Shown in pieces: positions 4,151-43,194 of a DNA stretch of 64,000 nt. A program made the translations under genes and the position numbers. The DNA is taken from NCBI RefSeq assembly GCF_009931435.1, contig NZ_CP043414.1; one strand, 5' to 3'. The stretch is from Escherichia coli (lineage in GTDB: Bacteria; Pseudomonadota; Gammaproteobacteria; Enterobacterales; Enterobacteriaceae). Each line of letters starts with the position of its first letter. Within the stretch, counting starts at the first letter, position 1. The notes under the pieces are model-generated. The model worked only from the letters and a program-made list of their open reading frames with translations, was not told the DNA's origin and did not search any database.

Positions 4151-5272
4151 ATGTCAAAAGTCGCTCTCATCACCGGTGTAACCGGACAAGACGGTTCTTA
4201 CCTGGCAGAGTTTCTGCTGGAAAAAGGTTACGAGGTGCATGGTATTAAGCGTCGTGCATCGTCATTCAACACCGAGCGCGTGGATCACATTTATCAGGAT
4301 CCGCACACCTGCAACCCGAAATTCCATCTGCATTATGGCGACCTGAGTGATACCTCCAACCTGACGCGCATTTTGCGTGAAGTGCAGCCGGATGAAGTGT
4401 ACAACCTGGGCGCAATGAGCCACGTTGCGGTTTCTTTTGAGTCACCGGAATATACCGCAGACGTCGATGCGATGGGTACGCTGCGCCTGCTCGAGGCGAT
4501 CCGCTTCCTCGGTCTGGAAAAGAAAACCCGTTTCTATCAGGCTTCCACCTCTGAACTGTACGGTCTGGTGCAGGAAATTCCGCAGAAAGAAACCACGCCG
4601 TTCTACCCGCGATCTCCGTATGCGGTCGCCAAACTGTACGCCTACTGGATCACCGTTAACTACCGCGAATCCTACGGCATGTACGCTTGTAACGGAATTC
4701 TCTTCAACCATGAATCCCCGCGCCGCGGCGAAACCTTCGTTACCCGCAAAATCACCCGCGCAATCGCCAACATCGCCCAGGGGCTGGAGTCGTGCCTGTA
4801 CCTCGGCAATATGGATTCCCTGCGTGACTGGGGCCACGCCAAAGACTACGTAAAAATGCAGTGGATGATGCTGCAACAGGAACAGCCGGAAGATTTCGTT
4901 ATCGCGACCGGCGTTCAGTACTCCGTGCGTCAGTTCGTGGAAATGGCAGCGGCACAGCTGGGCATCAAACTGCGCTTTGAAGGCACGGGTGTTGAAGAGA
5001 AGGGCATTGTGGTTTCCGTCACCGGGCATGACGCGCCGGGCGTTAAACCGGGTGATGTGATTATCGCCGTTGATCCGCGTTACTTCCGTCCGGCTGAAGT
5101 TGAAACGCTGCTCGGCGACCCGACCAAAGCGCACGAAAAACTGGGCTGGAAACCGGAAATCACCCTCAGAGAGATGGTGTCTGAAATGGTGGCTAATGAC
5201 CTCGAAGCGGCGAAAAAACACTCTCTGCTGAAATCTCACGGCTACGACGTGGCGATCGCGCTGGAGTCATAA
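4151..5272 (+). CDS. gmd: GDP-mannose 4,6-dehydratase
   Basis: 373-aa ORF; N-terminal Rossmann motif [13 protein letters not shown]; recognised as Gmd. Confidence 0.95.
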
Positions 5273-9382: not shown

Positions 9383-9590
<208 letters not shown>

Positions 9591-9661
9591 TGTAAATAAC
9601 GACAAAAATAAAATTGGCCGTTTCGGTCAGGGCCAACTATTGCCTGAAAAAGGGTAACGAC

Positions 9662-20565: not shown

Positions 20566-20604
20566 CAGTGCACTGGTAGCTGTTAAGCCAGGGGCGGTAG
20601 CGTG
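20566..20604 (+). promoter_or_regulatory. 39-bp JUMPstart element containing the ops site (RfaH-dependent antitermination signal)
   Basis: cagtgcactggtagctgttaagccaggggcggtagcgtg; ops core ggcggtagcgtg at 20593-20604. Confidence 0.8.
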
Positions 20605-40110: not shown

Positions 40111-40147
40111 AATAAAAAAGCCCCCGGAAGGTGATCTTCCGGGGGCT
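40111..40147 (-). terminator. his attenuator terminator
   Basis: Minus-strand hairpin gcccccggaag-atcac-cttccgggggc followed by a T-run, between hisL and hisG. Confidence 0.85.
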
Positions 40148-40210
40148 TTCTCATGCGTTCATGCACCACTGGAAGATCTGAATGTCTTCCAGCACACATC
40201 GCCTGAAAGA

Positions 40211-40261
40211 CTAGTCAGGATGATGGTGATGATGGTGGTGTTTAAATTGAACGCGTGTCAT
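40211..40261 (-). CDS. hisL: his operon leader peptide
   Basis: Minus-strand ATGACACGCGTTCAATTTAAACACCACCATCATCACCATCATCCTGACTAG encodes MTRVQFKHHHHHHHPD (seven consecutive His codons). Confidence 0.95.
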   Translation of the reverse strand: MTRVQFKHHHHHHHPD

Positions 40262-40510
40262 AAAAGTCTCTGTGAATGTTTATTCAACTGATGTCTTTTA
40301 ACCTAAACCACTTTCACGTTAGAAAGCAAGGGCTTTTTTATATATTTTATGGCGATGGATTTGTTTAATGAATGAGCGGGAAAAGGAGGGGGCTAAGAGG
40401 ACTGTCCTCTAACTTGACAGCACCAAAAAGAGCAAAGTCTGATTTTTCGTCTCGCTGGCAATGTCTTGATCTACAAACTAATTAATAAATAGTGAATTAA
40501 CACCCATCAT

Positions 40511-40528
40511 TGTACAATGAACTGTACA
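40511..40528 (+). promoter_or_regulatory. yefM-yoeB operator (paired TGTACA motifs)
   Basis: tgtacaatgaactgtaca immediately upstream of the yefM ribosome-binding site (agaggag) and start codon. Confidence 0.6.
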
Positions 40529-40543
40529 AAAGAGGAGATTTAC

Positions 40544-40795
40544 ATGCGTACAATTAGCTACAGCGAAGCGCGTCAGAATTTGTCGGCAACAATGATGAAA
40601 GCCGTTGAAGATCATGCCCCGATCCTCATTACTCGTCAGAATGGAGAGGCTTGTGTTCTGATGTCACTCGAAGAATACAACTCGCTGGAAGAGACGGCTT
40701 ATCTACTGCGTTCCCCCGCTAACGCCCGGAGATTGATGGACTCAATCGATAGCCTGAAATCAGGCAAAGGAACGGAAAAGGACATTATTGAGTGA
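40544..40795 (+). CDS. yefM: antitoxin YefM
   Basis: ORF 40517..40795; start [21 protein letters not shown] at 40544 gives 83 aa. Confidence 0.95.
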
Positions 40796-41046
40796 AACTA
40801 ATCTGGTCTGAGGAATCATGGGATGATTATCTGTACTGGCAGGAAACAGATAAGCGAATTGTTAAAAAGATCAATGAACTTATCAAAGATACCCGCAGAA
40901 CACCATTTGAAGGTAAGGGGAAACCAGAACCCCTGAAACATAATTTGTCAGGTTTCTGGTCCCGACGCATTACAGAGGAGCACCGTCTGGTATACGCGGT
41001 TACTGATGATTCACTGCTCATTGCAGCATGTCGTTATCATTATTGA
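40792..41046 (+). CDS. yoeB: toxin YoeB (ribosome-dependent mRNA interferase)
   Basis: 84-aa ORF overlapping the yefM stop (ATGA). Confidence 0.95.
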
Positions 41047-41128
41047 ACAGATTCATTCATAGAATGAATTGTCAGTTTTGATACGCTAGCGTAGCCTTAT
41101 AGATCTAAGGTGTATCAGGAGATAACGG

Positions 41129-41953
41129 ATGAAAAAGGTCGCAATTGTCGGGTTAGGGTGGTTAGGCATGCCGCTGGCGATGTCACTTTCAGCGCGAGGC
41201 TGGCAAGTCACCGGGAGTAAAACCACACAAGATGGTGTCGAAGCGGCCCGAATGAGTGGCATTGATAGCTATCTGCTTCGCATGGAGCCTGAGTTAGTTT
41301 GCGATTCTGACGATCTGGATGCCCTGATGGATGCCGATGCGCTGGTCATTACGCTTCCGGCACGTCGTAGCGGCCCCGGCGATGAGTTCTATTTACAAGC
41401 GGTACAAGAGTTAGTGGATAGCGCGCTGGCCCATCGTATTCCCCGCATTATTTTTACCAGCTCGACATCTGTCTATGGCGACGCGCAAGGCACGGTGAAA
41501 GAAACCACCCCGCGTAATCCGGTGACCAACAGTGGACGAGTATTAGAAGAACTCGAAGACTGGCTGCACAATTTACCCGGTACTTCGGTCGATATTCTGC
41601 GTCTTGCGGGCCTGGTCGGACCGGGACGTCATCCCGGACGCTTCTTTGCCGGAAAAACCGCCCCTGATGGTGAACATGGTGTTAATTTAGTCCATTTAGA
41701 AGATGTTATTGGCGCTATCACTCTGTTGTTACAGGCACCTAAAGGCGGACACATCTATAATATATGTGCGCCAGCTCACCCTGCGCGTAATGTTTTCTAT
41801 CCGCAGATGGCCCGTTTATTGGGGCTGGAACCTCCGCAGTTCAGAAATAGTCTGGACAGCGGCAAAGGTAAGATTATTGATGGCAGTCGGATTTGTAATG
41901 AACTGGGATTTGAATACCAGTATCCCGATCCGCTGGTAATGCCGCTGGAGTAA
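41129..41953 (+). CDS. yeeZ: NAD(P)-binding epimerase/dehydratase-like protein YeeZ
   Basis: 274-aa ORF; Rossmann-like N-terminus; conserved synteny. Confidence 0.85.
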   Translation: MKKVAIVGLGWLGMPLAMSLSARGWQVTGSKTTQDGVEAARMSGIDSYLLRMEPELVCDSDDLDALMDADALVITLPARRSGPGDEFYLQAVQELVDSALAHRIPRIIFTSSTSVYGDAQGTVKETTPRNPVTNSGRVLEELEDWLHNLPGTSVDILRLAGLVGPGRHPGRFFAGKTAPDGEHGVNLVHLEDVIGAITLLLQAPKGGHIYNICAPAHPARNVFYPQMARLLGLEPPQFRNSLDSGKGKIIDGSRICNELGFEYQYPDPLVMPLE

Positions 41954-42928: not shown

Positions 42929-43194
42929 AGAAAAATTATTATGACAAGCCTCTCATTCTCTTGTCATTTCCCCCCCATTTAGGCACAATGCGCCGCTGTC
43001 AAAAAATGACTAAAAACCGACGTTTAATTAGCGTCGGTTATTTTTTGCTTCAAACCAATCATTCATACCAAGAGGCCGGGCTTCGTACCGGATAGATATT
43101 TACTAAAAATCGACAGTTGTTGTCGCTGAGGAATCCAAAAAAATGGGGCAATTTTTTGCTTACGCGACGGTTATCACCGTAAAGGAGAATGACC

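Follow-up and report, generated by a model that had tools for sequence, protein, structure and literature searches.

The 64 kb stretch of Escherichia coli DNA analyzed here (hereafter the window) carries a yefM-yoeB toxin-antitoxin module next to the his operon, and the question raised by this locus is whether the copy is still the complete, autoregulated system known from K-12 and, if it is, what role it plays in a species in which a sizeable share of genomes lack it. Judged from its sequence, the locus is almost certainly the canonical E. coli chromosomal type II toxin-antitoxin operon, intact and indistinguishable from that of K-12 at the protein level. As such the operon is real, already known in full detail, and holds nothing new; few type II systems are as well characterised as yefM-yoeB, for which crystal structures and ribosome complexes have been solved and both promoter and operator mapped, and identifying this copy has little value beyond getting the annotation right. 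The surroundings are likewise unexceptional: we regard the window as an ordinary E. coli chromosome segment, because positions 41000-64000 are 99.97% identical to the genome of CFSAN061769. The features of the locus on which the argument rests are collected in Table 1.

Table 1. Features of the yefM-yoeB locus and its immediate surroundings, with positions in the window
Feature	Position	Strand	Description and basis
Rfam His_leader	40112-40235	-	131.6 bits
hisL	40211-40261	-	Adjoins the module, divergent
Present/absent cassette	~40400-41048	+	Bounds from the O157:H7 alignment; genome counts; SNP map
-35 hexamer of the yefM-yoeB promoter (pyy)	40490-40495	+	TAGTGA; placed by the 17-bp spacer to the -10 box and the K-12 description (PMC7730913)
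L (long) operator palindrome	40507-40520	.	TCATTGTACAATGA; primary YefM site, covers the -10 box; K-12 identity, DNase I footprint in PMC1802561
-10 hexamer	40513-40518	+	TACAAT; sequence and PMC7730913
S (short) operator repeat	40523-40528	.	Core TGTACA; surrounds the transcription start; 12 bp centre to centre from L
Shine-Dalgarno-like sequence	40532-40537	+	GAGGAG; 6 nt before the yefM ATG; sequence
yefM	40544-40795	+	83-aa Phd/YefM-family antitoxin and autorepressor; ATG start, TGA stop at 40793-40795
yoeB	40792-41046	+	84-aa YoeB/Txe (RelE-fold) ribosome-dependent mRNA endonuclease toxin; GTG start, TGA stop at 41044-41046
AT-rich 8-bp hairpin	41051-41069	+	ATTCATTC-ATA-GAATGAAT, then GTTTT; just past the yoeB stop
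yeeZ	41129-41953		Right of yoeB

We confirmed the open reading frames of both genes, which the preliminary description had reported as intact at this position, with the antitoxin gene first and the toxin gene second on the same strand. That description had also given the overlap between the two genes as the four nucleotides ATGA; the length of 4 bp is right (40792-40795), but the tetranucleotide reads GTGA rather than ATGA because the yoeB start codon is GTG, and this was its sole factual slip. At the protein level, YefM is 100% identical over its full length to chain 2A6Q_A of PDB entry 2A6Q (E. coli YefM), and YoeB is 100% identical over its full length to chain 2A6Q_E of the same entry (E. 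coli YoeB), with the YoeB sequence also present in seven further PDB entries, ribosome complexes among them. Profile searches agree with these assignments, with YefM scoring 96.8 bits against Pfam PF02604 (Phd/YefM, cut-off 29.8) and 186.6 bits against the NCBIfam equivalog NF008499 (cut-off 121, positions 1-83 of 83), and YoeB scoring 146.3 bits against Pfam PF06769 (YoeB toxin, cut-off 27, profile positions 1-80 of 80) and 132.8 bits against the NCBIfam equivalog TIGR02116 (cut-off 51.8).

Alignment with K-12 (b2017/b4539), the check proposed in the preliminary description, revealed eight SNPs in 507 coding nucleotides (3 in yefM and 5 in yoeB), all of them synonymous and none leading to an amino-acid substitution, together with an intact mapped operator. 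Disabling substitutions in the catalytic residues of YoeB, the finding that the preliminary description had named as speaking against a complete module, are absent: Glu46 (general base), Arg65 (transition-state stabiliser), His83 (general acid) and Tyr84 (substrate-orienting), to which these roles were assigned in the YoeB-ribosome structure paper (PMC3814384), are all present. Further, the RefSeq accessions of the two proteins in CFSAN061769, which is 100% identical to the window over 40200-41200, are WP_001259255.1 and WP_000767829.1, and K-12 carries the same accessions; the products are therefore identical.

The start of yefM needed to be settled separately, as a mechanical list of open reading frames offered a 92-aa version beginning at the ATG at 40517. 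We rejected this version in favor of the 83-aa reading because the ATG at 40517 lies upstream of the mapped transcription start at 40524; in K-12, translation of YefM is known to start from the second of the two ATGs, and a ribosome binding site has been reported 6 bp from it (PMC1802561), the same distance at which the Shine-Dalgarno-like sequence of the window is found. Ahead of yoeB, a weak AAGGA precedes the GTG by 9 nt.

Upstream of yefM, the regulatory region reproduces what has been mapped in K-12. The operator there consists of the L palindrome 5'-TCATTGTACAATGA-3' and an S repeat with the same TGTACA core, separated by 12 bp centre to centre (Kedzierska et al., PMC1802561). In the window, TCATTGTACAATGA forms a perfect 14-bp palindrome with TGTACA at its centre (40511-40516), and a second TGTACA core follows at 40523-40528, such that the two cores lie 16-33 bp upstream of the yefM ATG. 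The paired TGTACA motifs at 40511-40528 had been taken in the preliminary description for the known operator architecture, and this holds, as they are identical to L and S of K-12 with the same 12-bp distance between centres; its view of the module as complete is borne out as well, with both proteins at 100% to 2A6Q and both the operator and the -10 box identical to K-12. The arrangement TGTACA-N6-TGTACA is found a single time in the window vs. 0.01 occurrences expected from shuffles, whereas single TGTACA hexamers are not enriched in the window (9 found vs. 12.8 expected).

The transcription start and the promoter boxes can be placed in the same manner. In K-12 the yefM ATG lies at +21 and a further ATG at -7 (PMC1802561); counting back from the yefM ATG of the window puts the transcription start at G 40524 and the -7 ATG at 40517, where an ATG is indeed observed. 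A 2020 follow-up paper described the K-12 promoter, pyy, as having a -10 box TAcAAT and a -35 box TaGttA with a 17-bp spacer, and the spacer in the window is also 17 bp. According to the same work, the -35 box sets promoter strength and its poor quality makes the K-12 yefM-yoeB promoter weak, while L lies over the -10 box and S around the start site, such that the repressor sterically blocks RNA polymerase (PMC7730913). A generic sigma-70 and terminator scan of 40200-41200 did not call the weak pyy promoter and found no terminator after yoeB; it also returned two matches inside yoeB on the minus strand, which we discounted as chance-level. Because the binding sites and the proteins are identical to those of K-12, where autoregulation was measured (PMC1802561), the operator and promoter of the window are predicted to autoregulate yefM-yoeB.

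Compared with K-12 as a whole, the locus shares the two proteins (83 and 84 aa), the GTG start and the GTGA overlap, as well as the L palindrome, the S repeat, the -10 box, the start site and the Shine-Dalgarno sequence. Its position is shared too, with hisL on one side, yeeZ on the other and his transcribed in the opposite direction; the preliminary description was right to place the module beside the his operon, since it adjoins the divergent hisL/hisG, with hisG further left of hisL, then hisD, on the minus strand, and with yeeY beyond yeeZ on the right. Promoter-proximal differences from K-12 are found at only four positions: 40494 in the -35 box, 40502 and 40504 in the promoter spacer just outside L, and 40541 between the Shine-Dalgarno sequence and the yefM ATG. 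At 40494, the fifth -35 position, the window has G (TAGTGA) where K-12 has T (TAGTTA); this is the one position that differs in the box reported to set promoter strength, with neither allele fitting the consensus there and both hexamers matching it at 3 of 6 positions. The 77-bp promoter allele of the window has exact matches in 231 complete genomes and that of K-12 in 505, and because the former is carried by so many genomes we consider it a normal natural variant.

Because identical proteins and an identical operator are documented in the K-12 literature (PMC1802561, PMC7730913, PMC3814384, PMC7167474), we apply the K-12 mechanism to the module of the window, and we would expect this strain to express and repress the module as K-12 does, with the same toxicity and control by Lon. 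On this account, the weak sigma-70 promoter would drive a bicistronic yefM-yoeB mRNA from G 40524, with translation of yoeB probably coupled to that of yefM via the GTGA overlap. A YefM dimer would bind the L palindrome first and then the S repeat, and YoeB seated on YefM would act as co-repressor; in K-12, YefM-YoeB binds L and S more avidly than YefM does (PMC1802561). With L occupied over the -10 box and S around the start site, RNA polymerase would be sterically excluded by the complex, resulting in autorepression.

In its toxic arm, the same account predicts that YefM neutralises YoeB by direct binding in this strain, as suggested by the 2A6Q structure of the complex of identical proteins. 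YefM would be labile to Lon protease, with its depletion freeing YoeB, an expectation that accords with the activation of YoeB by Lon overproduction (PMC7167474). Free YoeB would then enter the ribosomal A site and cut the mRNA there behind the second nucleotide of the codon, a cleavage in which Glu46 would presumably be the general base and His83 the general acid; ribosome-dependent A-site mRNA cleavage, along with inhibition of growth when the toxin is expressed, has been shown for the identical YoeB of K-12 (PMC3814384).

To place the module in its species context, we ran a megablast search of 40200-41200 against 5,426 complete E. coli genomes. The hisL-yefM-yoeB-yeeZ arrangement is the same in the genomes matched, and the segment behaves as a present/absent cassette (Table 1), which was found in 4,211-4,217 of the 5,426 genomes (~78%), with every copy chromosomal and more than one per genome seen only rarely. 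In the remaining ~22%, O157:H7 included, about 208 bp stand in place of the cassette (O157:H7 allele, L002:1562-1990). This filler contains a REP-like element, a 27-mer of which matches REP copies of the window at 9402-9428 and 9490-9516 with 2 mismatches. The region of the window from which these copies come (9402-9657, ~9.4-9.7 kb) holds REP-derived elements with Rfam naRNA4 and algC RNA matches.

A single genome, that of strain HH97, carries an allele intermediate between the two states (L004:1326-1978). In this allele a perfect L+S operator is followed by a yefM relic (~75% identity) that lacks a start codon and contains numerous indels, and then by the first ~60 nt of yoeB and an O157-type right end. 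That the O157:H7 allele is a never-occupied site into which a REP element inserted was considered too and set aside in view of the HH97 intermediate, which favors a decayed relic. Because HH97 carries such an intermediate, we read the seemingly empty his-yeeZ alleles as decay products, and the comparison suggests that they are relics of yefM-yoeB rather than virgin sites. Should this decay series be true, the "TA-less" lineages would have lost an ancestral module rather than never having had one. The population picture as a whole, with ~78% presence, relic alleles and plasmid homologues (described below), may be of use for studies of how chromosomal toxin-antitoxin systems are acquired, lost and degraded.

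Differences from K-12 are unevenly spread over the cassette and its flanks. Across 40200-41200 we counted 28 differences (97.2% identity), 14 of which fall within the 65 bp of 40400-40464; the 200-bp left flank has 2 differences and the 154-bp right flank has 0, while the cassette is 96.0% identical to K-12 overall. The first ~80-100 bp of the cassette (40400-40480/40505) are thus SNP-dense, and they are not shared with the plasmid homologues. A 37-aa open reading frame running across this stretch (40372-40485) was rejected as coding, because its 15 differences from K-12 lack third-position bias (4, 5 and 6 at codon positions 1, 2 and 3, counted by hand). With no coding signature and no counterpart in the plasmid homologues, 40400-40464 looks non-functional, and it is most simply read as the unconstrained, spacer-like margin of an old cassette. 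At the opposite end, the hairpin just past yoeB is computed to fold at -9.6 kcal/mol (z-score -2.1, a slight gain in stability over shuffles) and is possibly a weak terminator after yoeB. We rejected the idea that it is a terminator borne by the cassette, as it is conserved in the O157:H7 allele, which has no module; because genomes without the module also carry it, we assign the hairpin to the conserved backbone upstream of yeeZ.

These distributions bear on the role of the module, as distinct from its identity, and in the literature the physiological role of yefM-yoeB is unsettled (PMC7167474). The alternative that survives best holds that the module is intact in sequence yet physiologically inert, "selfish" baggage that is kept by addiction or drift and brings no gain in stress survival. 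The absence of yefM-yoeB from ~22% of complete genomes points in this direction, as do the empty sites, whose appearance as decayed relics means that loss is tolerated, and the observation that at 42 C YoeB is activated in a Lon-dependent manner with no measurable fitness effect (PMC7167474). The coding comparison pulls the other way, with 0 non-synonymous vs. 8 synonymous changes relative to K-12 and with each protein represented by one RefSeq accession across distant strains, a pattern of strong purifying selection wherever the module has been retained; addiction by itself, however, could give the same pattern. Weighing the two, we hold this explanation to be a tentative but serious possibility; it concerns what the operon does for its host, and leaves its reading as the canonical yefM-yoeB operon as it is.

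Related modules outside the chromosome provide a second line of comparison. A blastn search of a plasmid collection retrieved yefM-yoeB from plasmids of Citrobacter, Salmonella, E. marmotae, Enterobacter and Pantoea (L010-L015) at 75-86% DNA identity, with proteins 80-95% identical in amino acids to those of the window; examples are an IncFIB/IncFII plasmid of Citrobacter sp. TSA-1, Salmonella Milwaukee pIncFII.1 and E. marmotae pEM148, and the Citrobacter, Enterobacter and one of the Salmonella plasmids were typed as IncF. The region similar to the plasmids reaches from ~40480-40523, at the promoter or slightly upstream of it, to the stop codon of yoeB. As in the window, the plasmid modules encode 83- and 84-aa proteins with a GTG start, a GTGA overlap and the four YoeB catalytic residues (in 5 of the 5 read), and the L core TGTACA is invariant (5/5) within ATCATTGTACAATGA-like palindromes. 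They differ from the window in the S core, which is AGTACA or TGAACA (one mismatch) with the spacing still at 12 bp, and in their neighbors, which are tra or IS genes rather than his; the Citrobacter copy adjoins traT and the Enterobacter copy an IS110 transposase. Because the layout is kept across the 14-25% DNA divergence of the plasmid homologues, the operator is, by this measure of conservation, functional and not a chance arrangement.

The plasmid copies also motivate the proposal that chromosomal YefM is an anti-addiction device, which would neutralise the YoeB of incoming IncF-type plasmids and permit their loss without killing the cell. Close homologues with the same operator layout do exist on enterobacterial plasmids, but no such plasmid copy was found in E. 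coli among the plasmid-collection matches, and the idea itself is borrowed from another system, ccd of Erwinia; the proposal seems very unlikely to apply here. Three near-identical E. coli records are filed as plasmids, with sizes of 0.39-4.8 Mb, of which at least the largest has the appearance of a misfiled chromosome. A joint reading would combine a his-yeeZ decay series, running from the intact module through the HH97 relic to the O157:H7 REP stub, with a kept copy that serves as an anti-addiction device and a -35 G at 40494 that tunes basal expression; taken together, this combination strikes us as unlikely. Finally, that the module is disabled, as a pseudogene, with a dead toxin or with a broken operator, is refuted at the sequence level and can be regarded as extremely improbable, with no supporting evidence found and with full-length frames 100% identical to crystallised active proteins, the catalytic residues in place, and L, S and the -10 box as in K-12.

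A further related system is axe-txe from Enterococcus faecium pRUM, which we likened to the module of the window on the basis of its description in PMC7730913. It resembles the window in its homologous Phd/YefM-YoeB/Txe pair, its paired TGTACA palindromes 12 bp apart and its -10 box TACAAT, whereas it differs in a stronger -35 box (TTGctt) and in the location of L, which lies in the promoter spacer rather than over the -10 box and entails another mode of repression (PMC7730913).

Several further elements were noted elsewhere in the window. A second toxin-antitoxin pair, of type IV and consisting of a CbtA-family toxin and a CbeA antitoxin, lies on the minus strand at ~57050-57900 within a CP4-44-like prophage remnant that also holds yeeS, yeeT and an antirestriction gene, with Ag43 further on. 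At ~51900-55400, a group II intron with an ltrA reverse transcriptase/maturase sits inside IS629 (IS3-family) and splits its transposase gene; the features recorded in this region are an Rfam ALIL match at 52182-52298, an open reading frame at 53298-54821 and an Rfam Intron_gpII match at 54825-54911. Annotation of both the intron/IS629 region and the CbtA/CbeA pair was transferred from CFSAN061769 (99.97% identical). The yeeY-yoeI/plaP intergenic region contains an Rfam STnc240 sRNA match on the plus strand (42974-43048, 69.3 bits). Lastly, a JUMPstart element at 20566-20604 stands ahead of a run of plus-strand open reading frames, which, from the gene order near his, we take to be probably the O-antigen cluster.
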